Part shown: positions 3,272-35,775 of the stretch, one piece after another
Position numbering within the stretch: position 1 is the stretch's first letter
How the letters are laid out: each line of letters starts with the position of its first letter
NCBI RefSeq assembly: GCF_058153355.1
Contig: NZ_CM177019.1
Strand: one strand, 5' to 3'
DNA: 64,000 nt
The notes under the pieces: generated by a model
The model's database searches: none
What the model was told of the DNA's origin: nothing
What the model saw: the letters and a program-made list of their open reading frames with translations, nothing else
Made by a program: the position numbers and the translations under genes

Positions 3272-4726
3272 TTACCGGAACGGCGGTTCATTAAAGGTTC
3301 GTAATTTACGTGAATGCAGTCGGTCGCCTTCTGCGCGCAGCAAATCGATCGCCCGAATGCCAATTTGCAGGTGTTCGGAAATAGCGCCTTCATAAAAACG
3401 GTTAGCCTGACCGGGAAGTTTAATCTCACCATGCAACGGTTTATCTGAAACACACAGTAGTGTCCCGTATGGCACGCGGAAACGATATCCTTGCGCGGCA
3501 ATGGTTGCACTTTCCATATCAATTGCTACGGCCCGGCTTAAGTTAAAACGAAGTGCAGAAGCTGAGTAACGTAATTCCCAGTTCCTGTCATCTGTGGTTA
3601 CCACAGTGCCAGTACGTAGCCGCTGTTTAACTTCCTCTCCGGGCCTGCCGCTGACTAACTTGGTAGCGTCATAAAGCGCACGTTGCACTTCAGCAATGCT
3701 CGGAATAGGAATATCGGGCGGCAGTACCGCATCAAGAACGTGGTCATCGCGTAAATAAGCGTGTGCAAGTACATAATCTCCAATGGCCTGGCTTTCACGT
3801 AAGCCACCACAGTGACCAATCATCAACCAGACATCCGGGCGCAGCACCGCCAGATGATCGCAGATGGTTTTAGCATTTGACGGTCCCACGCCAATATTCA
3901 CCAGAGTAATACCCTGACCATCGGCGGTAATTAAATGCCATGCTGGCATCTGGTGTTTTTTCCATGCAAGGTCGGAAATGGCTTCTTCTGGCGCTTCGGT
4001 TTCGGCGGTGATCCAGTTCCCGCCAGCACAAGAAAGGGCAATGTAGGGACTATCAGGGTCGAGGATCTGGCTGCATCCCCAACGAACGAATTCATCCACA
4101 TAACGTGTGTAGTTGGTAAACAAGACGAACGGCTGAAAATGTTCAACTGGCGTACCGGTATAATGGCGCAACCGCGCGAGGGAAAAATCGACGCGGCGCG
4201 CATCAAAATGCGATAGCGGGGAGAATTCCGTTGGATGATAAATGCCGTCTGCAGTTTCATCGCCAATTTGCGCCAGTTCTGTTGTCGGGAAGTAGCGAGT
4301 TAATCCAGCGCTCATTGAGCGATCAAGTGTCAATTCAGAGCCATCGATGACATAAGGATAAGGGATTTCATGCTGCGAGGGTTGCACCGAGATATGCGCA
4401 CCATAATCCTGATACAGCAACGTAAGTTGTTCATTCAGATACGAACGAAAGAGAGTAGGGCGAGTAATCGTGGTGGTGTAGCTGCCTGCGTGGGTAAAAC
4501 GACCAAATGCGCGCGTTTTGGGGGGATTTGTTGTGCTACCGTCCCAGGTTACGGTCAGTGATGGATAGACAAAAAGACCTTCTTTACGGGCATTTTCATC
4601 AGGTAATTCGCCACTTTTAATATAGTTGCCAATGGCATTGCGTAAAGCGACTACAGATTGCTCATACAGCGCGTCGAGTTTTTCCAGTGCCTGAGCTGGG
4701 GTCAGACCGGAGCCCTTATTATTCAT
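3272..4726 (-). CDS. amn: AMP nucleosidase
   Basis: ORF 3272-4882 contains the Amn sequence from internal Met (MNNKGSGLTPAQALEKLDALYEQ); start placed at that Met (484 aa). Confidence 0.85.
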   Translation of the reverse strand: MNNKGSGLTPAQALEKLDALYEQSVVALRNAIGNYIKSGELPDENARKEGLFVYPSLTVTWDGSTTNPPKTRAFGRFTHAGSYTTTITRPTLFRSYLNEQLTLLYQDYGAHISVQPSQHEIPYPYVIDGSELTLDRSMSAGLTRYFPTTELAQIGDETADGIYHPTEFSPLSHFDARRVDFSLARLRHYTGTPVEHFQPFVLFTNYTRYVDEFVRWGCSQILDPDSPYIALSCAGGNWITAETEAPEEAISDLAWKKHQMPAWHLITADGQGITLVNIGVGPSNAKTICDHLAVLRPDVWLMIGHCGGLRESQAIGDYVLAHAYLRDDHVLDAVLPPDIPIPSIAEVQRALYDATKLVSGRPGEEVKQRLRTGTVVTTDDRNWELRYSASALRFNLSRAVAIDMESATIAAQGYRFRVPYGTLLCVSDKPLHGEIKLPGQANRFYEGAISEHLQIGIRAIDLLRAEGDRLHSRKLRTFNEPPFR

Positions 4727-6144: not shown

Positions 6145-6449
6145 AATGATCCTGTTTGTACTGTCTTTTTATAATTAGTATGGAAAAGGTAACTCACATT
6201 GCCGTCGATCTATAAACGAACCTTATGAGACTACCGCGCCAGAGCGCTTCTGCAAATGATTTTATGGCTGATTAACGGCAACATGAAAAATTCGATGGAA
6301 GATGAAATCGCAGGAGTTGCATAAGGATTGAGCAGAGCACCTACAGTTTTGAGATATGAAACATAAAAGTCCGCATATGCACAAAATTGCACCCTGATGA
6401 TTCTGATAGACTGCATTGCATTATAACCAGTAGGGAGGCGAGGTTAGGT

Positions 6450-7520
6450 ATGTTTTTAGCATCATTGTTGAGACGTATTGCATTTAGTTACTACGATTAT
6501 AAAGCTAATAATTTCAATATTGAAAAAACAGAGTTTGTTGTCATCCATATTCCCGATCAGATTGGCGATGCTATGGCTATCTTTCCAGTGATTCGGGCGC
6601 TTGAATTGCATAAAATCAAGCATCTTTTAATAGTTACTTCGACAATTAATTTAGAAGTCTTTAATGCGCTCAAACTTGAACATACTAAATTAACATTAGT
6701 CACAATGACTATGCAGGATCACGCAACATTAAAAGAAATAAAAGATTTAGCGAAGAACATAACACAGCAATACGGTACGCCGGATCTTTGTATAGAGGCA
6801 ATGCGTAAAAAGAACCTGAAAACGATGTTATTTATCAGTCAGTTGAAAGCAAAAACAAATTTTCAGGTTGTTGGTTTAACCATGAAGTGCTACTCCCCTT
6901 TGTGTAAGAACGCCTCCCGGATGGATCAACATCTCCGGGCTCCCGTACCCATGACATGGGCGTTTATGATGCGTGAAGCGGGTTATCCGCCAGTCAGGCC
7001 AATATATGAATTACCATTAAGCGAGCAGGTAATAAATGAAGTACGTGAGGAATTGTGCACTTTAGGATCTTACATTGCGCTTAATTTAGATGGCAGCGTG
7101 CAGGAACGCACATTTTCGTTATCAGTAGCTGAGAAACTCATCGCCAAAATTCAAAGTGATAATGATATGCCAATAGTCATTGTTCATGGACCAAAAGGGG
7201 AAGATAAAGCCCGGAAATTAGCGGGTTGTTATAATAATGTCTACCGGCTATCCTTATCACCCTCGATTAAACGTTCAGCAGCAATCATAAAAGATGCTTA
7301 TATCGCAATAACCCCTGATACCTCAATATTACATATGGCAAGTGCCTATAATACCCCCGTCGTTGCAATTTATGCTGATTACAAAACGCGGTGGCCTGCG
7401 ATGGCAGATATCTCGGAGTCAGTGGTCGTTGGGCAAAAAATTGATCATATAAGTTTGGATGAATTCGGAAAGGCGCTAAAAAGTGCTTTGGAGAGAGTAT
7501 GTGTCAGTACTTACGTATAG
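6450..7520 (+). CDS. yeeL: glycosyltransferase family 9 (heptosyltransferase-like) protein YeeL, apparently intact
   Basis: ORF 6387-7520; start placed at internal ATG preceded by GGGAGG. Position between shiA and yeeJ. Confidence 0.6.
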   Translation: MFLASLLRRIAFSYYDYKANNFNIEKTEFVVIHIPDQIGDAMAIFPVIRALELHKIKHLLIVTSTINLEVFNALKLEHTKLTLVTMTMQDHATLKEIKDLAKNITQQYGTPDLCIEAMRKKNLKTMLFISQLKAKTNFQVVGLTMKCYSPLCKNASRMDQHLRAPVPMTWAFMMREAGYPPVRPIYELPLSEQVINEVREELCTLGSYIALNLDGSVQERTFSLSVAEKLIAKIQSDNDMPIVIVHGPKGEDKARKLAGCYNNVYRLSLSPSIKRSAAIIKDAYIAITPDTSILHMASAYNTPVVAIYADYKTRWPAMADISESVVVGQKIDHISLDEFGKALKSALERVCVSTYV

Positions 7521-7818
7521 AAGGTAATGCCGATCTATGCTGAACAGGGGACATTAATACCCTGAGGTTGGTCAATCACCACAAAAAAAGCCTTTGAATC
7601 AAAGCAATACTCACCGAATAATAAGGCAACCTGAACTTAAATCCCCGTTAACTGCCATACATTATTATGACTTGCACTGATGTAATTAGCTAAATATTAT
7701 CGTGATTTGACTAAATAGCAAAAATGATAGCTATCAAAAATAGCTCATATACTTTGTTTCCCGCTGCCGTAGAATAGATGGTCCTTCCATGTTTCAAGCA
7801 TTTATTCAAAAAAAAGGG

Positions 7819-7872
7819 GGCTCGACTGTCTTACGATAAACAGAGAGGGATTGTAAAGTCGAGTGCCCCTAA
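7819..7872 (-). terminator. Rho-independent terminator downstream of yeeJ
   Basis: GC-rich hairpin (GGGGCACTCGACT...AGTCGAGCCCC on the minus strand) followed by a T-run. Confidence 0.5.
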
Positions 7873-7899
7873 TGGAGCACTCTATAAAAAAATCAACAA

Positions 7900-15888
<7,989 letters not shown>

Positions 15889-16196
15889 GCTTACCTTCCC
15901 TGAACGAGCTAACATAAATGCGCCCTTTCTAGCACAGCGAAAAAATATAAATCCTGATAGCAATATGATTGAAAATTAATAACTTTTCGTTAAGCAGTTT
16001 TGGGTGTGAGTTGCAAGAGGGGAGACTACTGAATAACTCAAGTTTTATAATCGAGGGGAAAATGGTGATGGTGTCCATAGCAAAACGCCCTCAACCATAA
16101 AGATCGAGGGCGCTTAAGATGTCAAAAACCCGCTATCCGTTAAAAAGCAATGCTCAACTAAGGTCAGTGACATTGCGCTAAAAAGCGAATTTTTAG

Positions 16197-16216
16197 AATT
16201 TGGCTCCTCTGACTGG
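16197..16216. repeat. island boundary direct repeat (duplicate of tRNA-Asn 3' end, AATTTGGCTCCTCTGACTGG)
   Basis: Identical 20-mer recurs at 33537-33556, overlapping the 3' end of the minus-strand tRNA-Asn. Confidence 0.75.
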
Positions 16217-16367
16217 GATCGCCGTAGCCATTAACTGGCTGATTGGTAAGCTAAACCTAAAAGTTGGGGTTGTCAAGACCACCAGAATGACCACCTCTTT
16301 ACTTTGAAACTAACGACATATTTTACGCTCATCCCTCAGTCAATCGTAAGCTAATAAACAACACCAA

Positions 16368-16748
16368 CTACGGTGCTGGTATTATAGTCTCTGCTCCAAA
16401 CCAATTTCCAAGTGTTGTCAGTGCCGCAGGTGACAAAGCTTGGGTGAAAAGGATCGCAAGGCGCTTTTGGGGTCTGGAACAAGCGACGTAAAACAAATTT
16501 CGGTTTCGTTCAAATGAGTCTTGCTTATCGACTGGAATCGTTTGGGCTCCAGCGAATTCCAACATTTCTCCGAAGTTATACTGGTTCCACCCACGCCCAA
16601 CAACAACCAGGACATTCTCAAATTCAGCACCTTTCACACCATGTTTAGTTTCGAATGGAGAATATCCATCAAGATAACGGCGAAGTGATCTGACCTCCGA
16701 ATAGGGAATATTTTTCAGCTTTTCAAGTTCTTTTAATCTTCGGGGCAT
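16368..16748 (-). CDS. UvrD/PcrA-like SF1 helicase, C-terminal segment
   Basis: Carries helicase motif V/VI-like sequences (KGAEFENVLVV, YVACSRPQKRL); same reading frame as 16794-18122, separated by a single TAA. Confidence 0.6.
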   Translation of the reverse strand: MPRRLKELEKLKNIPYSEVRSLRRYLDGYSPFETKHGVKGAEFENVLVVVGRGWNQYNFGEMLEFAGAQTIPVDKQDSFERNRNLFYVACSRPQKRLAILFTQALSPAALTTLGNWFGAETIIPAP

Positions 16749-16793
16749 TTCAACATCAGCCGTTCTGTCAAAATGGAGTAACTCCTGCTCAAA

Positions 16794-18122
16794 TTATTCA
16801 ACCTTATCTGGAAGTCTTGGCTTCCGTTGAGCACGGATGAACTCAATTACGTCGCCAATTGTACCAGTTTCGCGGAGAGCAAGAAGTTGCGTCATTACAT
16901 TGTGCCAACTCACCTTATCTGAATGTCTACGCAACAGTGGTGTAATACCGCCAAGCGCATTAAACATCTCTCCATACTTACGAGCGGTAAAGGCATCACA
17001 GGCGGGTTCCAGTTTGTCTACAAAAAAGGCTATATGTTCATGTTCCTTTTTCGTGAAGGATTCATTGTATTTAAACGCTGCCACTATATTTGAATAGCCC
17101 TGCTGATTGGCTAAAAGTCGATGGGTCAACATGAGAATTTTGGTGTGATTGGGAGAAAAGTCCCAACCATCCTGCTCCAACGTTGTTTTAACTCGTTCCA
17201 GAGTAGCCTGGCCTTCACATAATGGTAAATCACCACTCCAGTGCACGCCTTTTTGACGAACTCCTTGCCAATTGTTTGTATGGAAAACGCGTACTAAACC
17301 TGTAGCTTCGGGATCTTTAACACACTGCGGTAGCTCAGGTCTCATACGATTAAGGGCATCAACAATTATCTTGTCCGAACGAAAATTGGCTTCTTTACCT
17401 ATTTCAACCACGTCCTGATGTTCCAGCTTTCCACATCCACCACCATAGATTTTTTGCCAATGGTCGCCGAAAAAACCAAATAAAGGTGCTCTAGCTTGTC
17501 CAAGAAAATGCCGTTTAATTGCCTCAATCCAGTTTTTATCAGTGTCCTGGTACTCATCGACCAGAATGATTGGAAAGCGTTCTGCAATCACTCTACGGAA
17601 TTTTTCGTGCTCCATGAGTGAGACAGTTAAAGAAAGAACATCGTCATGATGAAGAGTTATACGATGGTCGCGAATAGAGCGATGTCCAAGATTATACTCA
17701 ACACTACGATTCCCAAGGCTTCCACCAACTTCTTCGAGCTTTTCTGTCCATGTTGGCATTGTCTCAATCAGTTCTCTCAACGGTTTTTGAAAGCTGCTTA
17801 TTAACGACCAACAGAACGCATGATTGGTATCACAAAAAACGATGGGGCTTCGATCTGTTCGCGCGACGATTTCATCCTTCGCCACGTTAGTAAAGGTGAT
17901 GCAGGCAATTTGCTGGCTACGTTTTTCAAATAAATCCTTATTTCGCTCAATCAAGAATCGAAGTGCCTTAATAAGGGAATACGTTTTACCCGCACCAGCG
18001 CCAGCTTCCAGCCGGAAGCTTCGTCCTTCACTGAGGCAAGCATACATAGATTCCAAAGCTCGCTGGCTAGCAGCTTCGGCGGGCGAATGGATCTCAGACA
18101 TCAGCGCTGGCTCCTTCTTCAA
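16794..18122 (-). CDS. UvrD/PcrA-like SF1 helicase, N-terminal segment
   Basis: Walker A GAGAGKTY, motif II ILVDEYQDT, motif III-like FFGDHWQKIY; start overlaps the upstream OLD-family gene by 29 nt. Confidence 0.7.
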   Translation of the reverse strand: MKKEPALMSEIHSPAEAASQRALESMYACLSEGRSFRLEAGAGAGKTYSLIKALRFLIERNKDLFEKRSQQIACITFTNVAKDEIVARTDRSPIVFCDTNHAFCWSLISSFQKPLRELIETMPTWTEKLEEVGGSLGNRSVEYNLGHRSIRDHRITLHHDDVLSLTVSLMEHEKFRRVIAERFPIILVDEYQDTDKNWIEAIKRHFLGQARAPLFGFFGDHWQKIYGGGCGKLEHQDVVEIGKEANFRSDKIIVDALNRMRPELPQCVKDPEATGLVRVFHTNNWQGVRQKGVHWSGDLPLCEGQATLERVKTTLEQDGWDFSPNHTKILMLTHRLLANQQGYSNIVAAFKYNESFTKKEHEHIAFFVDKLEPACDAFTARKYGEMFNALGGITPLLRRHSDKVSWHNVMTQLLALRETGTIGDVIEFIRAQRKPRLPDKVE

Positions 18123-20166
18123 TACTAGTTGTGGCTTCTACAACTTGCGCCAATACTGGATCTTGTGTCATAAGCTCATTGCTGCCAGCTAACCAGCGGA
18201 TTCCATCGACTATGTATTTGGGGGCGTTCCATTCTGTCTCTGTAATCGCGTATTTCAATGCAAATTCTGATTTTTTCCACTCAGACGCTTTATCACGGGC
18301 TTCTATTTCCAGTTCCTGAGAATTTCTCCCTACCAGCCCGAATAAAGCCGAATTTGCAAGGATAAATGCATCTTCGAATGTGCGTCCGCAGGGGCCATCT
18401 GTCACTTCTGCACATTGATAGGCAATACGATTTCCATTACGAGCTTTATCATCGTCACTCCTGGCAATCAAACCAGCTAATGTGAAAGGGGTATCTTCAG
18501 AGAACCATGCTTTCAAACAAGCATTACTGGAATATGTACCAAGATGAACAGCACATGCCTGACCTCCTGCTCTTTGGACTGCGTCCAGATCTGTTATGAT
18601 CAGACTCTGAAGCTCAAGAAACGCTAATAACTCGAAGAACAAATGAGCGTAAGCACCGCCGACTTCCATCACCGTTGCGTACTGGCTCGACAGCTTCGGT
18701 CTCTCTGGTTCGGCTGATTCTAGTTTTTTGATGATGACGGGAAGCAATAATCGCTCGCTTAACCCCTCGACGAGAATCGCTTTATCTGCGAAAAACAGAT
18801 CACAACGTGTCAACGTCATGTATTGATGAAGGAATTTTTTATCTTCAATTAGAATATGATTCAGCCCTTTACGCAGATCTTTAATTTTGGTTTTTCGGAC
18901 ACCTTCCTGAGTCCCCTGTGCTGGAGCCCCCAGAAAATAGCGAATACTCTCGAAACCAGCCGCATTGGCAATGTGAGACGAGTGTGTAGACACGACAAAT
19001 TGTACAGGCCAGGGTCTCCTGTCCTCAGTGCCATCCACCAGTTGTTGTGCAATTTTGGCAAGTTGACGAATAAAAACCTCCTGCATTTGTGGATGCAGAT
19101 GGGCTTCTGGTTCTTCAATGAATATCAGGTGTACACCCGGCTCAGTAACTTCAGCACAAAATGCTTTATAGAAACCAGCTAATTGCAAGAGAATAAATAT
19201 CAGATTACGTGTACCAAGACCGTTATATGACTCCGGTAATGCGATTCCGCTATAACCTGAATAGCGAACTTTCGTGAAGTTTGATAGCAACTTGCTAACA
19301 TCGAGCAATGTTTCAGTATGTAACTCCTGTCCTCCCAATCCTGGGTATCCAAAAGTTTCTAGAGCCGGAATCAGACTGTTGAGCTGGTTTCCGAAGTTTG
19401 TGTCAATTTGAGTCTGAATGTCCTGAACTGCACCTTTCAATGCATCAGCAATTTGTTTATCAGCAGCTCCCGCAGATGCCGAAGAGGCTGTTGCGAAAAG
19501 ATTTTCAACCGTTTTAGCCAGTACATCGGATTCTCGGGACGTCACATCATCAAGTCCTCGCTGAGCGTTGATAAAGCCCGATTTGACCAGACCGCGCAAT
19601 GCACTAGGTGGTAACTCGCGACGATTATCAGGATCGTTGGGATCTTCAGCCCATATTTTCACACAGAAATTATTAGGGATACGTTCTCGCAATATACGGA
19701 GGAAAGCGAGGCGGTCTTCTCTAGAAAGTGGCATTTCAGTCTGACTTTCGAGAAATTGTGTCAGATGGCCATCTTTCAATTCGTATCGGACTACTACCTG
19801 CGCTTCAGAACACGCGGGATCCAAATCGATAACAAAGGGACTCAATGGACCTAATTGAGGTTGTGCAGGGTCGTACTGGAATTTCAGTCGAAGTTCAATG
19901 GCGGGAATAAGTTCTCGAACGAGATGATCTTCCATGCCTTCCTTAAGTGCTTCCAGAACATCACAAAAACGGTCGTAGCAGGAACTGGAAAAGTCTTCAA
20001 GTTGGAAAGTAGCACTACCATCTGCTAAGAATCTGCGTATTATTTCTGAGAGTGATGTTTTTCCGCTGTTGTTTCGTCCAACAATGACGGTCGTCTGTTC
20101 CTCCAATACAAGCTCTGCATCAGCTAAAAGACGGAAGTTTTTAATTTCGACCTGATGAATGTGCAT
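18094..20166 (-). CDS. OLD-family ATP-dependent endonuclease (ABC ATPase plus TOPRIM), GajA-like
   Basis: 690 aa; Walker A GRNNSGKTS, Walker B/D-loop LIFIEEPEAHLHP, H-loop STHSSH, TOPRIM-like AILVEGLSE and ITDLD. Confidence 0.7.
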   Translation of the reverse strand: MHIHQVEIKNFRLLADAELVLEEQTTVIVGRNNSGKTSLSEIIRRFLADGSATFQLEDFSSSCYDRFCDVLEALKEGMEDHLVRELIPAIELRLKFQYDPAQPQLGPLSPFVIDLDPACSEAQVVVRYELKDGHLTQFLESQTEMPLSREDRLAFLRILRERIPNNFCVKIWAEDPNDPDNRRELPPSALRGLVKSGFINAQRGLDDVTSRESDVLAKTVENLFATASSASAGAADKQIADALKGAVQDIQTQIDTNFGNQLNSLIPALETFGYPGLGGQELHTETLLDVSKLLSNFTKVRYSGYSGIALPESYNGLGTRNLIFILLQLAGFYKAFCAEVTEPGVHLIFIEEPEAHLHPQMQEVFIRQLAKIAQQLVDGTEDRRPWPVQFVVSTHSSHIANAAGFESIRYFLGAPAQGTQEGVRKTKIKDLRKGLNHILIEDKKFLHQYMTLTRCDLFFADKAILVEGLSERLLLPVIIKKLESAEPERPKLSSQYATVMEVGGAYAHLFFELLAFLELQSLIITDLDAVQRAGGQACAVHLGTYSSNACLKAWFSEDTPFTLAGLIARSDDDKARNGNRIAYQCAEVTDGPCGRTFEDAFILANSALFGLVGRNSQELEIEARDKASEWKKSEFALKYAITETEWNAPKYIVDGIRWLAGSNELMTQDPVLAQVVEATTSIEEGASADV

Positions 20167-22843: not shown

Positions 22844-24667
22844 GTGTGTCACGAAGGAGTACTTATGGCAACAATGTGAAAATTGCAGCATAAGTTATCC
22901 ATGCTCTGAGGTGGGTGGAGGTGGGCCCTCCGGTCAGGGTTTACAGGAGCACTGACCAAACGACCCGGTGCTGCTTCATTCTAAGGAATGAGGTGGTGAG
23001 CGACTCGGGAAAAGGCAGAGATCTACTGTCACGTGGGGTTCGGGAAGCTGAACGAAAGTAAACTGTCCGATGAAGCATCGAAATCTTAGATGATGTCAAA
23101 ATGGGGCCGTACAGCCGTCCCCTGATAAGCGCAGAAGACACCTGCTTACTGACTGCGCGGCATCCGGTGTGAAGGCAGCAGGATCCCGGGCCAGACCATC
23201 TCAGGGAACGTGAGAACCTGTTTCCGGCACGTATCGGGAAACAGGGGCGGACCCATTCGTAGTAGTGATGAAAGATCTGTAATGGGTCTGGAGCGAAGGG
23301 ATGGGGATCACATTCATTGCAGAAGACACAACCCAAAAGGGGATGACGTAACTGATGCAACGAAAATCATTTGAAATACCAAAAGCACTGGTCTGGGCAT
23401 CATATCTGGATGTGCGTCGCAACAAGGGAGCCCCCGGATGCGACGGGCAGACTTTGAAAATGTTCGACCAGCAACGTGATGGCAATCTATACAAGATCTG
23501 GAACCGGCTATGTTCGGGAACATGGTTTCCGCCACCAGTGCTGGAAAAACGGATCCCGAAGTCGAATGGCAAGGAACGCATTCTGGGGATCCCAACAGTA
23601 TCCGATCGAATTGCTCAGGGAGCGATAAAACTTTTCATGGAAGAAAAGCTTGACCCGATTTTCCATGCTGATTCATATGGTTACCGACCAGGCAAATCAG
23701 CTCATGACGCTCTGAAACAATGTGCCATCCGGTGCTGGCGTTATAGCTGGATACTGGAAGTGGACATCAGTGCGTTTTTCGACCATGTGAGACATGATCT
23801 GGTGCTCAAAGCTCTGGAACACCACGGGATGCCTAAATGGGTCATCCTGTACTGTCGACGCTGGATGGAAGCGCCAATGCAGAGTTGTGAAAATGGAGAA
23901 TTAATAACCCGAACACGAGGCACTCCGCAGGGCGGGGTCATTAGTCCACTACTTGCTAACTTGTTCCTTCACTATGCATTTGATTTGTGGATGGAAAGAG
24001 AATATCGGGGGGTACCGTTTGAGAGGTACGCTGACGATATTGTAGTACATTGTTCACGAATGAGTGATGCAACAAGGCTGAAGAACAGGTTATCGGAGCG
24101 CTTCTCGGAAGTCGGGCTGGTCCTGAATGCAGGGAAAACGAATATCGCCTACATTGACACGTTTAAAAGGAGAAACGTCGCAACGAGTTTCACCTTTCTC
24201 GGATATGACTTCAAAGTGCGTACGCTGAAGAATTTCAAAGGCGAACTGTACCGAAAATGCATGCCGGGTGCGTCAAATGCAGCAATGCGCAAAATAACAG
24301 AAACAATCAAGAAGTGGCGTATACATCGCTCAACAGCTGAGAGTTTGCTGGATTTTGCGAGGCGCTACAATGCGATAGTGAGAGGCTGGATCGAGTACTA
24401 CGGAAAGTTCTGGTCCAGAAATTTCAACTATCGACTGTGGAGTGCAATGCAGTCACGTCTGCTCAAGTGGATGCAGTCTAAATACAGACTTTCGAACCGG
24501 AAGGCTCAGCGAAAGCTGACGCTGGTAAGGAAGGAGTATCCGAAGCTATTTGTTCACTGGTATTTACTACGTGCATCAAATGAGTGATCAAGAGCCGTAT
24601 GACGCGAGAGTGTCACGTACGGTTCCGTGAGCAGCCGGGGAGTGAAATTCTCTCCGGCTGACTCGAC
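22844..24667 (+). mobile_element. group II intron (~1.8 kb) with intron-encoded reverse transcriptase
   Basis: 5' GTGTG start; domain V-like GAGCCGTATGACGCGAGAGTGTCACGTACGGTTC near 3' end; joining the flanks restores the TnpC frame (KNWL-FAGSDSGG). Confidence 0.7.
23355..24587 (+). CDS. group II intron reverse transcriptase/maturase
   Basis: 410 aa with RT motifs including YADD and a C-terminal maturase-like region. Confidence 0.8.
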   Translation: MQRKSFEIPKALVWASYLDVRRNKGAPGCDGQTLKMFDQQRDGNLYKIWNRLCSGTWFPPPVLEKRIPKSNGKERILGIPTVSDRIAQGAIKLFMEEKLDPIFHADSYGYRPGKSAHDALKQCAIRCWRYSWILEVDISAFFDHVRHDLVLKALEHHGMPKWVILYCRRWMEAPMQSCENGELITRTRGTPQGGVISPLLANLFLHYAFDLWMEREYRGVPFERYADDIVVHCSRMSDATRLKNRLSERFSEVGLVLNAGKTNIAYIDTFKRRNVATSFTFLGYDFKVRTLKNFKGELYRKCMPGASNAAMRKITETIKKWRIHRSTAESLLDFARRYNAIVRGWIEYYGKFWSRNFNYRLWSAMQSRLLKWMQSKYRLSNRKAQRKLTLVRKEYPKLFVHWYLLRASNE

Positions 24668-29684: not shown

Positions 29685-29861
29685 TGCTTTTTATGTAAAC
29701 TGAATGATGGCGCTGTCATATACAGCGCCATCATTTTTTATAACGACAAGTGATTAAAAAATCCTTTTGCAGGTAAAAACAGTTTTTCCTTTCTCCGCCA
29801 GCGGTACTGGCATAGTCTCCCCCTTGCCCTATGCTGTCGTTGACAGCGCCACGCTTCACAA

Positions 29862-29889: not shown

Positions 29890-30119
29890 TTGAGCCCTTT
29901 ACCGGTGCAGACCTTTGCAAACACCGGGTCGCAGAACATCGCGACGGAGGCCAGAGTTTTAACACGATACGTCCTTTTACTGCGCCAGCCTGCTGGTCTG
30001 AATCTGCCCCGCGCCGGAATTTTCCCGGTCAGCTTATATTTGCTGACACCCTCAGCACCTTTTACCTCACGGGCTGCGGCATGCATTTGCCGCAAGGCAT
30101 TTGCTGACGCGTGCCCGTA

Positions 30120-30250
30120 AAACTGCACCAGACGGTAAATTTTCAGACGCTGCACCAGACCCGTGCGTCACTTTAACCGCGCAGAGCGGGAAAGTGACGC
30201 ACGCAATCCCTTTCGACCTGCACCAGAAAACTCAACTGCGCCAGCTCACG
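30120..30250 (-). repeat. array of CTGCACCAG/CTGCGCCAG motifs upstream of the recombinase gene
   Basis: At least four copies near 30123, 30149, 30220 and 30238, in opposite orientation to the array at 31618-31881. Confidence 0.45.
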
Positions 30251-30535
30251 GCTGGAGTCTGACACCGCCTTTTCAGGCCATTTACCTATAAGGAGAACAT
30301 GAATCGATACCGAGGCGGATCCGGACGATCCGGGGGATAACCCGCGCAAGCGGGCGGCTGCTCAGAGAGCACAACCGAAGCCCCACCACACCTCAACGGC
30401 TGCCGCCCCGGCGCTCAGGTATCGTTCGCAGCCCCGACAAAAAAACAGGGGCTATCGGCCTGTGCGCCGGGGAAAGCTGTATCAGTGTTGGTTTTTTGGG
30501 GGATGAGTTTGCGGCAATCATGAAAAGGGGAATGT

Positions 30536-31423
30536 ATGGGGATACTGGAGCAGGAAATGACGCGACTGGCGCAGCAGGCGGGTGGCAGCTACAAAACTGT
30601 GGATGACCGCATCAGGCTGGCGCAGCGGTTTTGTGAGCGTCTGGTTCTGGCGCAGAACGTACAAATCCGCCGGGTGGAGCAGCTTAAGGCGCGGCATATT
30701 GAAGGCTATGTTCGTGAACGGCTGGCGCAGGGCATCACAAAGCGTTCCCTGCAAAATGAGATGGCGGCGGTGCGCTGCATTCTGAAACAGGCCGGGCGTG
30801 ACAGGCTGGCGCAGAGTGAGCGGCTGAATAACCGCTCGCTGGGATTGTCCGGAGCATCCCGTAACGGGACGAAGCTGGCTATTACACTGGAGCACTATCG
30901 TGATGTGCTGGAGACCGCCCGCGTAAAAGATCCGGGGCTGGCGGCAGCGCTGGAGCTCTCAAGGTTGATGGGATTACGTTCGCAGGAGGCGGTGCAGAGT
31001 GTACAGTCGCTGAAAACGTGGATACAGGCGCTGGAGCGTGGTGAGTCCCGGTTAACCGTGGTGTTCGGCACCAAAGGCGGACGGCCCCGCGAGACGATTA
31101 TTCTTGATGCTGGCGTAGTTAAAAAAGCGCTGGATAATGCGCTGGTGGTGGCTGAGGATCGTCACGGCAGGCTGATAGATAAGCCCGATCTGAGAAGCGC
31201 GATGAAATACTGGCACAGCCAGGCGTCGGGTCTTGGTTTAACTGGCGCATATTCCCCGCACTCGTTGCGCTATGCCTGGGCGCAGGATGCTATTCGTCAT
31301 TATCTGGCGCAGGGATTTTGTGAGAAGGAAGCGCTGGCGATGACGGCGATGGATTTGGGTCACGGCGACGGGCGCGGGCGGTATGTGGCGCAGGTTTACG
31401 GGCGAAAGGGGGATGCTGATTGA
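30536..31423 (+). CDS. small tyrosine recombinase/integrase-family protein
   Basis: 295 aa; C-terminal HSLRYAWAQ box and candidate nucleophile in GRGRYVAQVYG; LAQ-rich N-terminal domain. Confidence 0.5.
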   Translation: MGILEQEMTRLAQQAGGSYKTVDDRIRLAQRFCERLVLAQNVQIRRVEQLKARHIEGYVRERLAQGITKRSLQNEMAAVRCILKQAGRDRLAQSERLNNRSLGLSGASRNGTKLAITLEHYRDVLETARVKDPGLAAALELSRLMGLRSQEAVQSVQSLKTWIQALERGESRLTVVFGTKGGRPRETIILDAGVVKKALDNALVVAEDRHGRLIDKPDLRSAMKYWHSQASGLGLTGAYSPHSLRYAWAQDAIRHYLAQGFCEKEALAMTAMDLGHGDGRGRYVAQVYGRKGDAD

Positions 31424-31446
31424 TAGCTTCAGACTTGCAATATGAT

Positions 31447-32005
31447 GTTATTCATCGTTTTCCGTACAAAATTATTTGCCTCAAATAATTTTGGGTGATT
31501 TCCTATTAATCCCGGGTTATTCATCGTTATTCACCGAAAAAATTTCTACGTAGAAATTTTTTGTTCGATTTCCTCTCAATAAAAATGCTTCTGAACGGTA
31601 TGGCCTATTAACAGGCCTCTGGTGCAGTATTACGGTATTTTACTGATGATTGCGCCAGCAAAAGGAAAAGGCCAAATAATGGTAAAGGGCGACTAAGGGT
31701 AACAGCGCCAGACCGGAAAGGGCCAAAAGGCTAAAAGGCCTTAACACTGGCGCAGTTTGATGTTTATCCAATAATATCTGGCGCAGTCCTGACATAGACA
31801 GGTGACAGCGGACTGGTGCAGTAAATGGTGACATTGAACTGGTGCGGATACGATGTATTGGGAAATCAGTTTCTGGTGCAGATTATCTGGCAGCTATCGT
31901 CTGGAGATTATTCACTGTGAATAATTTTCGTTATTTGCCTATTGATTCATAATATATTGATAGGTTTTCGTACAAAATTATTCTACGTCGAATAATTTTG
32001 TACGC
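31447..32005. promoter_or_regulatory. cluster of perfect palindromes (candidate operators or recombination sites)
   Basis: CAAAATTATTTG-CCT-CAAATAATTTTG (~31466-31492); 24-bp AAAAATTTCTACGTAGAAATTTTT (~31539-31565); ATTATTCAC-T-GTGAATAAT (~31907-31925); GTACAAAATTATTC...GAATAATTTTGTAC (~31969-32002). Confidence 0.5.
31618..31881 (+). repeat. array of CTGGYGCAG direct repeats at ~26-35 bp spacing
   Basis: Copies near 31618, 31747, 31778, 31813, 31839 and 31873. Confidence 0.5.
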
Positions 32006-32055
32006 TTTCCGATTAATAACCCAAAAGTTGAAGATAAATCCTTTCAATGTAAAAA

Positions 32056-32088
32056 GCAGATCCGGATTCAATCGGGATCTGCTTTTTC
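32056..32088. terminator. bidirectional hairpin terminator between recombinase region and integrase 3' end
   Basis: AAAAAGCAGATCCGGATTCAATCGGGATCTGCTTTTT: 10-bp stem flanked by A-run and T-run. Confidence 0.55.
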
Positions 32089-32116
32089 ATTCTTAACAAA
32101 TCATATTGCTACTGGC

Positions 32117-33379
32117 TCAGGCCGCCTTATGCCGTCGCGCATAAATATACGGCGCAACGTATCCCTCGCGGCTCACGTCCAGATAATCCGACCACCACTG
32201 CATCATGGCTGTACGGGCGTCAAGATGTTCAGCCCGGTGGATATACGCCGCCCGAACGCTGTTGCGCTCCTGATGACTTATCTGCCGCTCCACCGCATCC
32301 CGTGACCAGAGCTCAGATTCCACTAATGCGCTACAGGCCATTGCCCGGAAGCCATGCCCGCAAACGTCAGTTTTAGTATCGTAACCTATCAGACGCAGCG
32401 CCCGGTTGATGGTGTTTTCACTCATCGGTTTATACGGGTTATGGTCGCCGGGGAACACCAGTTCCAGATGGCCGGAAATTTCGTGTATCTGCTTCAGAAT
32501 GGCAATAGCCTGTCGGGAAAGTGGCACAATATGTGGGGTGCGCATTTTCGCGCCGCGACCAGAGAAACGGACTTTCTCAATCGCTTCCCTTGTGGCGGGG
32601 ATGATCCAGATTTTGTTTCTGAAATCTATCTCACCCCAGCGGGCAAAGCGCAGCTCGCTGGAACGGATAAACAGGTGGAGAGTCAACACCACCGCCAGCC
32701 TCGTAAGCTGTCGTCCCTGCCGATAGTCGCCAATGCGCTCAAACAATTCGGGCAACCGCTCCAGCGGCAGAGCGGGATAGTGATTCTTAACCGGCGGCGC
32801 GGTGACGCCTTCCAGATGCTGCGCCGGGTTGTTTTCGGTCAGTCCCTGCTGAACGGCGTAACGCATGATGTTGCAGAGTTGCTGCCGGGTACGGGACGCG
32901 ACTTCCAGAAAACCTTTATCCTCAATAACCCGCAGTAACGCAGTGAAATGCTGCGTTTTCAGCGTGGTAACGGGCAGATGGCCAATAGCCGGAAATATAT
33001 GGTTATTCATGCTGGCGAGAATGCGCTCTGCATAATCAGGCGACCACTTTTTGTTGGTTTTGTGCCATGCAAGCGCTACAGCTTTAAAACACTTTTCCGG
33101 TGAAGTGGCGGCTTTTTCATCCATGCGTTGTTGGGCGGGGTTGATATTCTGCGCCAGTAGCTTGCGGATAGCATCGCGCTGTTGCCGGGCTTCAGCGAGA
33201 GAAATCAGCGGATATGCGCCCAGACTGACGCGGGACTCTTTACCACCGAAGCGATACTTGAGATACCAGATACGTGAACCGCCGGGATTGACCAGCAAAT
33301 ACAGACCGTGTGAATCAGACAGTTTGACGGGTTTGGAAGAGGGTTTTAAGTTACGGATTTTTGAATCGTTTAAAGACAT
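32117..33379 (-). CDS. int: P4-type tyrosine integrase
   Basis: ORF 32117-33481; start placed at MSLNDSKIRNLKPSSKPVKLSDSHGLYLLVNPGGSRIWYLKY, a P4-integrase-like N-terminus; adjacent to tRNA-Asn. Confidence 0.8.
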   Translation of the reverse strand: MSLNDSKIRNLKPSSKPVKLSDSHGLYLLVNPGGSRIWYLKYRFGGKESRVSLGAYPLISLAEARQQRDAIRKLLAQNINPAQQRMDEKAATSPEKCFKAVALAWHKTNKKWSPDYAERILASMNNHIFPAIGHLPVTTLKTQHFTALLRVIEDKGFLEVASRTRQQLCNIMRYAVQQGLTENNPAQHLEGVTAPPVKNHYPALPLERLPELFERIGDYRQGRQLTRLAVVLTLHLFIRSSELRFARWGEIDFRNKIWIIPATREAIEKVRFSGRGAKMRTPHIVPLSRQAIAILKQIHEISGHLELVFPGDHNPYKPMSENTINRALRLIGYDTKTDVCGHGFRAMACSALVESELWSRDAVERQISHQERNSVRAAYIHRAEHLDARTAMMQWWSDYLDVSREGYVAPYIYARRHKAA

Positions 33380-33540: not shown

Positions 33541-33616
33541 TGGCTCCTCTGACTGGACTCGAACCAGTGACATACGGATTAACAGTCCGCCGTTCTACCG
33601 ACTGAACTACAGAGGA
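33541..33616 (-). tRNA. asnT: tRNA-Asn (GUU), island integration target
   Basis: Exact reverse complement of the 76-nt tRNA-Asn at 1688-1763; symbol by synteny with yeeJ and mtfA. Confidence 0.9.
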
Positions 33617-34607: not shown

Positions 34608-34697
34608 GGAGAGATGCCGGAGCGGCTGAACGGACCGGTCTCGAAAACCGGAGTGGGGGCAACTCCACCGGGGGTTCAAATCCCCCTCTCTCCGCCA
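34608..34697 (+). tRNA. serU: tRNA-Ser (CGA)
   Basis: 90-nt GGAGAGATGCCGGAGCGGCTGAACGGACCGGTCTCGAAAACCGG...TCTCCGCCA with long variable arm and CGA anticodon. Confidence 0.85.
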
Positions 34698-34749: not shown

Positions 34750-35775
34750 TTACTTGGAATATTTTCTTGGAATATTTTCAGGTAACGGGACATCAAGTGT
34801 CGGTGAAACTTTAACCTTCCTGTCATAGATTAGCACTTGCCCCTCGGTTTTGTGACCAGAGAAAAGTTGCTTATCCCGACTGCTTCCTTCATAGTCTGAA
34901 ATTCCTTTCGCCTTCAGATCATGAAAGGTGAAGTCGGTTAAAATACCTGAAATTTTGCCTGCGCGATTTCTTGCTTCTACCCACATTTCGTTAAAGCCTT
35001 TGTACATATATCGGTTGCCGTATTGATTGCTGATTACATAGGCGGATGTTGGTAACTGTTTTGCTTTTTCGATCGCCGCCTGTAATCGTGGACTCCATGC
35101 TTTTATCTGTTTTTTCCCTGTTTTCCCTTGCTGGATAAAGATCCCGTCGTTTCCAATCTGCTCCCATTTCAGCGATAACACATCGGAAACCCTCGCTGCA
35201 CACAGATAGGCAATTTCCATTGCGATAAAAACAGGAAGAGGTGCAACGCTTAATACTGCCTGGTATTCTTTGTCGGTTACATATCGTTCCCGGTTTTTGG
35301 CCTTGAATTTACTTACACCTGCACATGGGTTAGCCTTCACGTACCCTCGCTCATACCCCCAACTGTAAACGCGGGACATACTGCTTTTTTCATGGTTGGC
35401 TTGCGTTTTACTCTGTTCCCCTCTCTTGTCCATGTATCGACGGATGTGTTCTGGTTTTATGGAATCTGCCGGCACCTTACCGAATACGGCAAGCAACTTT
35501 TTTTGATGTTGCAGATAATCTTTTTGTGTTCTTGGACTGAGGTCACTGTAATAGGCGCTGGCGAGGAATTTTTCCCACAAGCGACCGAATGTCATTGCAC
35601 GATCGCGATTATTTACAGTTTCCTCATACTTTTTCCATAAAGCAGCTAAACCATCCTTGATGGCGGTTAGTGTTACAGATTCTCTGGATGTTGGTTTCCA
35701 TACATAACTATATTTATTTGGGTATACATTTGGAGGTAATTTTTCGTGTTCAGGATTTTTCCTTCGTCTTCCCAT
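34750..35775 (-). CDS. int: phage tyrosine integrase
   Basis: 341-aa ORF abutting the tRNA-Ser 3' end with an excisionase immediately upstream. Confidence 0.75.
   Translation of the reverse strand: MGRRRKNPEHEKLPPNVYPNKYSYVWKPTSRESVTLTAIKDGLAALWKKYEETVNNRDRAMTFGRLWEKFLASAYYSDLSPRTQKDYLQHQKKLLAVFGKVPADSIKPEHIRRYMDKRGEQSKTQANHEKSSMSRVYSWGYERGYVKANPCAGVSKFKAKNRERYVTDKEYQAVLSVAPLPVFIAMEIAYLCAARVSDVLSLKWEQIGNDGIFIQQGKTGKKQIKAWSPRLQAAIEKAKQLPTSAYVISNQYGNRYMYKGFNEMWVEARNRAGKISGILTDFTFHDLKAKGISDYEGSSRDKQLFSGHKTEGQVLIYDRKVKVSPTLDVPLPENIPRKYSK

Follow-up and report, generated by a model that had tools for sequence, protein, structure and literature searches.

The 693-bp spacer at 31424-32116 of the 64,000-nucleotide stretch of DNA analyzed here (contig NZ_CM177019.1 of assembly GCF_058153355.1; "the window" below) is crowded with perfect palindromes, and the question it raises is what these palindromes do between two convergent genes that both end at it. 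On the left lies p295 (30536..31423, + strand), which encodes an MpsA-like protein of the tyrosine-recombinase family carrying Pfam domains PF12834 and PF12835 and is a candidate gene for a MOB_M-type mobilization protein; on the right lies a P4-type integrase gene (32117..33379, - strand) whose product is 51% identical to P4 Int. Both assignments bear out the first-pass annotation, which had placed the palindromes between a recombinase gene and a P4-type integrase gene and had offered an operator array, an origin or a recombination site as explanations. The region marked in that annotation starts 24 bp after the p295 stop codon. Our preferred answer, held tentatively and at rather less than even confidence, is that the palindrome region may be a cis-acting DNA-processing site of a mobilizable island, of the oriT (origin of transfer) or relaxosome type. 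This and the other functions proposed below are drawn from comparative sequence analysis.

Four perfect inverted repeats lie within 540 bp of the spacer (31467-32004). These have arms of 12 nt around a 3-nt spacer (31467-31478/31482-31493), arms of 13 nt with no spacer that form a 26-bp palindrome (31537-31562), arms of 9 nt around a single nucleotide (31907-31915/31917-31925), and arms of 15 nt around 6 nt (31969-31983/31990-32004). When distinct perfect repeats with arms of at least 9 nt and loops of at most 8 nt were counted, the whole window contained 12, a third of which are the four in the spacer. When 31424-32050 was shuffled 2000 times with dinucleotides preserved, such repeats averaged 0.036 per shuffle and never exceeded 2, so that none reached four; for arms of at least 12 nt, three were observed against a mean of 0.0005 in the same shuffles. 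The cluster is therefore non-random, and the dense group of perfect palindromes within about 550 bp described in the first-pass annotation stands, with two sizes corrected: the arms span 9-15 rather than 9-14 nt and the longest spacer-less palindrome is 26 rather than 24 bp. The spacer is AT-rich, with a GC content of 0.31-0.39 against 0.55-0.62 in its flanks. No similar palindrome was found elsewhere in the window, which argues against a dispersed repeat such as a repetitive extragenic palindromic (REP) element, an enterobacterial repetitive intergenic consensus (ERIC) or a miniature inverted-repeat transposable element (MITE).

All but one of the four palindromes form the core of a repeated ~65-bp unit, which keeps the same polarity throughout. 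Each unit runs from a left flank (TATTNATCGnTTTTC) through a palindrome of 33-36 bp, usually bounded as GTAC...GTAC, to a right flank of the form GnTTTCCTATYAAT. Unit A (31447..31511, + strand) has the left flank GTTATTCATCGTTTTCC, the palindrome at 31467-31493 (12+3+12) and the right flank GATTTCCTATTAAT, and is a hybrid in the window, its left outer end being of the unit-2/4 type and its right outer end of the unit-1 type. Unit B (31516..31580, + strand) joins the left flank GTTATTCATCGTTATTCACCG, which includes the DnaA-box-like TTATTCACC, to the spacer-less palindrome at 31537-31562 and the right flank GATTTCCTCTCAAT. Unit C (31955..32018, + strand) carries the left flank TATTGATAGGTTTTC, a palindrome at 31969-32004 and the right flank GCTTTCCGATTAAT; its palindrome can be read as 15+6+15 or as 13+8+13, the latter giving 34 bp from GTAC to GTAC. 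The outer flanks of the units are able to pair as well, which extends each palindrome into a long hairpin with a T-rich internal loop, and folding as single-stranded DNA (ssDNA) gave z-scores against shuffles of -4.5 for unit A and -5.2 for unit C. The fourth, small palindrome (31907..31925; ATTATTCAC t GTGAATAAT) consists of two inverted DnaA-box-like 9-mers, and TTATTCACA at 31917-31925 on the - strand is a perfect DnaA box.

The remainder of the spacer contains an array of 9-mer boxes, a purine-rich core and a terminator-like hairpin. Boxes matching CTGGYGCAG stand on the + strand at 31619, 31747, 31778, 31813, 31839 (the variant CTGGTGCGG) and 31873, spanning 31619..31881; the last five are 26-35 bp apart, phased at ~3 helical turns, and the boxes are conserved among relatives. 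Because they are spread over three reading frames, the spacer boxes are non-coding. The core (31648..31745, + strand) is made of ~eight AAAGG-type repeats and has the reversed box variants TTGCGCCAG and CAGCGCCAG at its borders. A small protein gene in this part of the spacer (open reading frame (ORF) 31640-31834, - strand) was rejected because relatives show indels of 1, 2 and 7 nt there. At 32051..32087, a GC-containing stem with A and T runs on either side is present in all aligned loci and can be read as a bidirectional intrinsic terminator common to both convergent genes; a terminator scan reported none of the four palindromes, this hairpin being the sole qualifier, and no terminator-like site was found from the p295 stop codon to 32051. 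Because both genes end at the spacer, a promoter or operator role for the neighbors is excluded. Of the explanations offered in the first-pass annotation, an operator array for the neighboring genes is thus unlikely, given the convergent genes and the hairpin at 32051-32087, while an origin (of transfer more so than of replication) and a recombination site are still candidates.

Conservation was examined in a survey of one genome per species, which yielded 47 loci encoding relatives of p295 (numbered with the prefix L). A close group with 77-93% p295 identity keeps the order p295, spacer and convergent integrase gene, the integrase being only 35-58% identical in some members. This group includes Phytobacter, Tenebrionibacter, Citrobacter, Entomohabitans, Klebsiella, Kluyvera, Tatumella, Brenneria, Affinibrenneria, Salmonella diarizonae, Pantoea and E. 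coli. According to the first-pass annotation, its suggestion would fail if related islands lacked the region or did not conserve it. Instead, spacer identity is 79-90% in related islands of E. coli, Phytobacter, Tenebrionibacter, Klebsiella, Citrobacter, Tatumella, Entomohabitans and Pantoea, where the palindromes are maintained by compensatory changes; some other relatives have no palindromes at all. The repeats were always linked to a gene of the MpsA family: a search of 5426 E. coli genomes found the spacer (39 genomes) and the p295 gene (39-42 genomes) always together, and carrier genomes have the region at one or two places, each time accompanied by p295.

Related islands of ~ten enterobacterial genera retain the palindromes as such through compensatory change. 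Arms lengthen, shorten or are exchanged on both sides jointly, as in E. coli N17 (TCACCCAAAATTATTTG/CAAATAATTTTGGGTGA), Pantoea (CCTGATGATATTTGA/TCAAATATCATCAGG) and Brenneria (AAAATATTCTG/CAGAATATTTT), and whole arms have been replaced symmetrically in L046, L024 and Brenneria. In a 13-sequence alignment, changes on both sides were found in 18 of the 75 pairs tested in the four palindromes and the terminator hairpin, compared to 6.4 in shuffles (0/500 of which reached 18) and 4-5 in controls slid by 1-3 columns. Measured between the outer GTAC ends, the palindromes keep a length of 33-36 bp, and their flanks are conserved with a single polarity. Unit A is kept in 11 of the 13 aligned loci with compensatory arm changes. 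The unit B palindrome is near-invariant, with a different perfect palindrome in that position in L008 and L024. Unit C was found in nine loci with invariant arms and a variable center, and the version in Brenneria and Affinibrenneria has altered arms that are yet still complementary. The small palindrome has decayed in four of eight relatives (L009, L021, L046 and L013) and, because it is not retained in them, is probably the least important of the four. The purine-rich core is the densest run of invariant columns in the alignment of the relatives' spacers and thus its best-conserved part, and it is the sole portion of the spacer kept in the palindrome-less relatives L010, L011, L014 and L015.

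Unit copy number ranges from 0 to 5 among relatives. Between units A and B, most relatives have an additional unit and ~110 bp of AT-rich sequence, neither of which is present in the window, and the deletion that separates the window from L003 has its endpoints in unit flanks, not cores. L014 and L015 retain the core and boxes and have no long palindromes, with p295 apparently intact (in L015 the stop codon comes ~3 codons early). L010 (4900-4960) keeps a unit in which one GTAC is all that is left of the 34-bp palindrome, and its p295 gene contains an early stop codon. Two loci have ORFs inserted in the spacer after a unit-B-type palindrome, of 534 amino acids in L022 (847-4046) and 158 amino acids in L025 (1159-2853), and in L002 (E. 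coli LF82, 8848-9306) an IS200C copy lies in the spacer between the box array and the unit C position, next to an integrase pseudogene. Because copy number varies and L014 and L015 have none, the units appear dispensable for the module, yet the alignments indicate that they are under selection where present; the core and boxes are its constant part.

It is possible that the units have no specific function and are AT-rich palindromes that arose by local duplication and hairpin-templated repair, perhaps bound by H-NS, and tolerated in a spacer between convergent genes. The variable copy number, their complete absence from some otherwise intact modules, the alteration of unit number by recombination between unit flanks, and the slippage-type collapse in L010 would all fit such an origin. 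However, palindromes prone to deletion, as L010 illustrates, persist at the same positions in ~ten genera, arms are replaced symmetrically at constant length, and the flanks are conserved and polar. We consider a lack of function quite improbable for these reasons.

The identity of p295 provides the first link to mobilization. The protein matches PF12835 (Integrase_1) with an E value of 3.2e-60 over positions 1-149 of 149 and PF12834 with an E value of 8e-36. PF12835 is used by the Burrus group as the signature of MpsA, the atypical relaxase of SGI1 (PMC10484663), and the best Pfam family of MpsA itself, taken from an SGI1 contig located through a published primer sequence, is PF12835 (E 2e-10). 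A profile of the p295 family aligned to MpsA with hhalign at 96.9% probability (E 1.6e-10), compared to 29% for a prophage integrase and 1.9% for an Xer-like plasmid recombinase as controls and only 20% (E 1e-3) for TcpM. The catalytic residues R, K, H, R, H and Y are invariant in p295, its relatives, MpsA and TcpM. Over 98% of its length, p295 also shares 49.8% identity with WP_033567157.1 from the integrative and conjugative element (ICE) SGI-4, which is among the seeds of the MOB_M relaxase profile of Ares-Arroyo et al. 2026 (bioRxiv 10.64898/2026.01.13.699239). p295 is thus nearer to the known MOB_M proteins MpsA and WP_033567157.1 than to ordinary integrases. In Burkholderiaceae, small plasmids encode a p295 relative together with an Xer-like recombinase, and because a separate Xer-like recombinase is present, a mobilization role suits the p295 relatives better than resolution.

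The resemblance extends to the surroundings of the SGI1 gene. The SGI1 module comprises mpsA-mpsB, oriT_SGI1 and sgm-sRNA (PMC6414798, PMC9299015); in both cases a gene for a PF12835 protein directly adjoins a non-coding stretch with many inverted repeats, within a mobilizable island that carries an integrase gene. The two differ in that p295 and MpsA share 23% identity in the profile alignment, p295 having its own N-terminal domain and no separate MpsB, and in that oriT_SGI1 is a 125-bp GC-rich sequence upstream of mpsA, whereas the sequences described here are AT-rich 34-bp units in several copies downstream of p295.

A second comparison is provided by a clade at ~50% identity to p295, which includes ICE SGI-4 and loci from Serratia, Erwinia, Pantoea, Photorhabdus and Klebsiella plasmids (L054, L026-L045, L055, L056). 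Here the gene is flanked by 1-3 copies of a hairpin unit, 770-900 bp upstream and 90-1100 bp downstream, in one orientation. Each unit runs from a GTCGC-N4-GCGAC mini-hairpin through CACCAATG to a covarying 6-bp stem around the loop CTGTGAGGARCGCCTTCGGGTG; the units on either side of these p295 homologues (in L054 at 2063-2245 and 4530-4590) have GAAA/TTCG-type mini-hairpins. Precisely the two upstream units of the SGI-4 spacer are shared by ~700 E. coli genomes, which fits the report that TAI islands carry an SGI-4-type oriT without a relaxase (bioRxiv 10.64898/2026.01.13.699239). In SGI-4 and a Pantoea MPF_G plasmid the gene is followed by genes for an ArdC-like protein, DUF1281, a methylase, a UvrD-helicase and TraI, the last two annotated in the retrieved stretch of the Pantoea plasmid only and not in that of SGI-4; this ArdC-to-TraI layout is typical of a leading region.

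Among homologues for which a role has been proposed, the nearest, 50% identical over the full length, belongs to the group of SGI-4, the SGI-4-like elements and the TAI islands, with their oriT_rM6 (bioRxiv 10.64898/2026.01.13.699239), and as in the close group several hairpin units of the same orientation, with covarying stems, flank the gene. The units themselves are unrelated in sequence and shape: those of SGI-4 have GC-rich 6-bp stems, 20-nt loops and the GTCGC-N4-GCGAC mini-hairpin, and they lie on both sides of a gene that has ArdC, methylase, helicase and TraI (MOB_H) genes after it, where p295 has a convergent integrase gene. The SGI-4 clade also has no CTGGYGCAG array. The one motif shared with the SGI-4 spacer, TTCATCGTTTTCGTAC, was set aside as a lone 16-nt coincidence (E 1.6) that other distant loci do not have. 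Repeated polar hairpin units beside a PF12835 gene are thus a family trait. Since such units occur in two clades with unrelated sequences, they form the main comparative argument that the palindromes would be the cognate cis sites of p295.

A cognate site need not be a transfer site, and p295 may instead be a true site-specific recombinase that uses the palindromes as lox/FRT-like core sites, each with two 13-bp arms and a 6-8-bp crossover spacer, for resolution of dimers of the excised circle or for deletion and insertion of cargo in the spacer. The full R-K-H-R-H-Y catalytic set is retained in p295, and unit C can be written as GTACAAAATTATT-CTACGTCG-AATAATTTTGTAC, or 13+8+13 = 34 bp, which is the geometry of loxP and FRT; like those sites and dif, it has 13-bp inverted arms and a 6-8-bp center, with a complete tyrosine-recombinase active site encoded nearby. 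The invariant arms and varying center of unit C in nine loci, the hybrid outer ends of unit A, the variable number of units and the ORFs inside the spacers of L022 and L025 are also what recombination at such sites might leave. In contrast to loxP, FRT and dif, however, the sites here are tandem and non-identical: arms differ among the units of one locus, and the unit-1 arm of L046 and L024 is unlike that of the ordinary units 2 and 4. Many centers, including those of units A and B and of many orthologues, are symmetric or measure just 0-4 nt, an atypical feature for crossover spacers. The deletion between the window and L003 ends in flanks instead of cores, and the units of the SGI-4 clade are stem-loops with 20-nt loops. 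The lox-like geometry and invariant arms of unit C, and the symmetry of several palindromes through their centers, nevertheless keep a double-stranded dyad site for a recombinase among the candidates, and we regard lox-like recombination as unlikely, while still deserving some weight.

A related reading with a very slight chance of being correct is that the hairpin units are single-strand-folding recombination or insertion sites for the MpsA-like protein, comparable to attC or CTX-attP. If so, the spacer would be a gene-capture platform, which would explain the inserted ORFs in relatives and the hybrid palindromes, and the polar CTGGYGCAG arrays that diverge from the p295 start would orient the machinery. 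Such a tyrosine-recombinase-family system would couple conjugative single-strand entry with cargo acquisition.

The CTGGYGCAG boxes reach beyond the spacer. Twenty copies are present in the window, compared to 1.06 expected, and 16 of these fall within 29980-31881. Their polarity switches at the start of p295, with 5/5 to the left on the - strand and 11/11 to the right on the + strand. Six of the + strand boxes form L-A-Q codons inside p295 and are missing from the ~50%-identity homologues; a synonymous-site test of these six in-gene 9-mers gave no significant DNA-level constraint (0.89 vs 0.85, p 0.096). Arm-type sites of the P4-type integrase were rejected as an identity for the boxes, which lie 1.7-3.5 kb from the att core. 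We know of no match between the 9-mer and Chi, KOPS or dif, and a resemblance to the XerC arm ends at the 9-mer.

Upstream of p295 is a second conserved non-coding block (30069..30535), which contains four - strand boxes (30123, 30150, 30218 and 30236), a hairpin and a GC-rich leader. This block is 80-94% conserved in every close locus, regardless of the cargo on its left. The hairpin (30162-30203) has a perfect 13-bp stem (CGTGCGTCACTTT/AAAGTGACGCACG) and a 16-nt loop, lies between two reversed CTGGTGCAG boxes and is kept in nearly all close relatives. The leader, a GC-rich and near-invariant structured sequence at ~30310-30500, lies just 5' of the p295 start codon; its consensus fold over 12 loci is predicted at -78.7 kcal/mol, with a GNRA-like loop in a covarying CCCGC/GCGGG stem. 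The sequence at 30310-30500 may serve as a structured 5' leader, correspond to a small RNA or be the oriT itself.

Taken together, these features would form a two-part mobilization module in which the units, the purine-rich core and the phased boxes are the cis half and p295 is the trans half. In this model, the P4-type integrase would first excise the 17-kb island, after which p295 would bind the repeated boxes and dyads that flank its own gene, possibly acting with host bending proteins and with a helper conjugative element that supplies its relaxase and coupling protein. The 34-bp palindromes, being AT-rich, could then form extruded cruciforms, or hairpins when their strand is displaced or transferred as a single strand, and either structure may aid strand opening and nicking or the priming of the complementary strand in the recipient. 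Strand-polar hairpin clusters near an origin of transfer are found in conjugative leading regions, such as F Frpo and ssi. The units described here are likewise strand-polar and clustered near what may be an origin of transfer; Frpo and ssi are longer and imperfect and contain promoter or primosome motifs, none of which were identified here. We infer action at the level of DNA rather than RNA, binding by p295 and a part in transfer from these comparisons.

Several observations weigh against this model. The oriT of a MOB_M-type module would be expected beside the relaxase gene, usually in the first large spacer on its upstream side. The palindromes adjoin p295 but are downstream of it, whereas the oriTs of SGI1, pIGRK and apparently SGI-4 are upstream of the gene, and palindromes are dispensable in some lineages (L014 and L015, with copy number at 0-5 across relatives). 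Searches for similarity to a plasmid oriT were negative, the sole match among 72,556 plasmid records being the same island in one Salmonella record, and a copy of a plasmid oriT, for example of the ICEKp1 or RP4 type, was rejected at blastn sensitivity; likewise, neither the flanks of SGI1 mpsA nor the spacer and units of SGI-4 aligned significantly. Several palindromes are self-complementary through the center, a symmetry that hairpin stability does not need and that therefore indicates double-stranded dyad recognition or a templated origin. To our knowledge, no protein this near to p295 has demonstrated relaxase activity, and SGI-4-type elements additionally carry a MOB_H TraI. Finally, the upstream block, which is conserved at least as well as the spacer, is itself a candidate for the actual oriT. 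Going by the arrangement in SGI1, pIGRK and SGI-4, that block may contain the nick site, in which case the downstream palindromes would be accessory, serving relaxosome architecture or acting as ssDNA hairpins that enter the recipient first.

The lack of a terminator-like site between p295 and 32051 also means that the units could act as RNA. The p295 mRNA would then read through to 32051-32087, carrying AU-rich hairpins in a ~660-nt 3' untranslated region that control stability, processing or convergent-transcription interference with int, or the hairpins would belong to a small RNA; because no terminator separates p295 from the units, RNA-level action stays a candidate. All spacer units and boxes are in the sense orientation relative to p295, and a sigma-70-like match at 31957-31984 could start an RNA of ~100 nt ending at the terminator. 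Mobilization of SGI1 requires a small RNA encoded beside mpsA, which serves as a precedent (PMC9299015). On the other side, 31200-32300, searched on both strands with the covariance models of Rfam 15, gave no match even at E <= 1, and a promoter scan found fewer sites than in shuffles (1 vs 2.4). The stems are near-pure A-U and complementary through the center, which is no help to an RNA hairpin, and compensatory changes restore Watson-Crick pairs. An RNA-level role is improbable on this balance, with a small chance of being correct.

The DnaA-box-like 9-mers suggest a further possibility, that the spacer is the vegetative replication origin of the excised island, with AT-rich palindromes for melting and the boxes as iterons. 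The low GC content of the spacer, the perfect DnaA box TTATTCACA (- strand, 31917-31925), an 8/9 DnaA match in unit B (TTATCCACC in most relatives) and the 9-mers repeated at ~3 helical turns are consistent with this, and replication following excision is reported for other mobilizable islands (preprint 10.64898/2026.01.12.698999). However, the conserved backbone of the island has no gene for a replication initiator (Rep), primase or helicase, four of eight relatives no longer have the perfect DnaA box, and the CTGGYGCAG boxes also occur within p295 and, in opposite orientation, upstream of it, unlike iterons. No similarity was found to any plasmid or phage origin. We judge a replication origin very unlikely.

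Other tyrosine-recombinase-like relaxases are known from pIGRK (MobK) and pCW3 (TcpM), whose oriTs combine several inverted and direct repeats (PMC8152469). The pIGRK oriT contains a G-rich tract, and the core described here is also rich in G runs. The relation of p295 to TcpM is weak, as given by hhalign above, and the oriTs of both plasmids are single and upstream of the gene. The spacer is most like the cis-acting regions that accompany tyrosine-recombinase-like relaxases, judged by sequence comparison, and differs from the three or four described cases in its position downstream of the gene and convergent with the integrase, its AT-richness, its up to five palindromic 34-bp units and its polar 9-mer array.

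The island that carries this module is ~17.3 kb long and extends from the 3' end of a tRNA-Asn gene, its integration target (33541..33616, - strand), to a 17-bp copy at 16204-16220 that repeats 33544-33560 with two mismatches. The longest ORF of the integrase gene extends to 33481, and the annotation of the E. coli orthologue starts at the equivalent of M35. The conserved backbone consists only of a 155-amino-acid ORF, a helix-turn-helix repressor-like protein, a toxin-antitoxin pair, p295 and int. Cargo includes a Gabija pair (16368-20166) in which GajA is intact (18094-20166) and GajB is split over two ORFs (16794-18122 and 16368-16748) and therefore probably frameshifted, as well as a group II intron reverse transcriptase, ORFs of unknown function and a MazEF-like pair. 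The reverse transcriptase/maturase lies within the island at 23355-24587 (TIGR04416, E 6e-118). Directly 3' of the MazF-like gene, a perfect inverted repeat with 14-bp arms followed by a T run (29703-29735) appears to be an ordinary terminator that has no relation to the AT-rich units.

The P4-type integrase and the tRNA target also raise the possibility of a P4-type regulatory or replication region (crr/ori) or a satellite-phage operator array, with which comparison had been suggested in the first-pass annotation. The likeness ends at the integrase, 51% identical to P4 Int, and the insertion in a tRNA gene; no repeats are shared with P4 ori/crr, and there is neither an alpha gene nor sequence similarity. 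The type-1 repeat TGTTCACC, clusters of which are bound by the alpha protein in P4, occurs four times in the window (2.3 expected) and not at all between 16 and 34 kb, and the island has no alpha, sid, delta, psu or epsilon genes. Searches with blastn against 50,697 phage records, P4 included, returned nothing, and the DNA beyond the 3' end of int in P4 is the cII gene rather than a palindrome-rich spacer. The sole "helicase" PHROG match among the island ORFs is the C-terminal piece of GajB, and a P4 alpha remnant at the far end of the island was rejected, as the 126-amino-acid ORF at 16368-16748 is this C-terminal part of the split gene. When viral contigs were scanned for the 26-bp palindrome, the sole match was this same island, bordering a predicted prophage. 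The comparison is thus negative, and a P4-type region is highly improbable.

Other candidate elements lie on both sides of the island. Between shiA and the distal repeat (6387-15963) are a heptosyltransferase-like gene and, on the - strand, a 2687-amino-acid ORF; they could represent an older island, or an adhesin locus, beyond the limits of the att-bounded element. On the other side, a prophage-like region at 34608-64000 follows tRNA-Ser (34608-34697) and has its own tyrosine integrase gene (34750-35775). With this second integrase gene beside tRNA-Ser, two mobile elements adjoin at the asnT-mtfA-serU locus.

Small tRNA-linked islands with P4-type integrases hold much of the anti-phage defense and virulence cargo of enterobacteria, represented here by Gabija and MazEF. 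If the palindromes are merely a tolerated AT-rich spacer, the finding is an ordinary one. If p295 and its spacer are instead a self-contained mobilization module, they would provide a testable route of transfer for an island family found in at least ten genera, and would add a structurally distinct cis site to the very few that have been characterized for tyrosine-recombinase-like relaxases.

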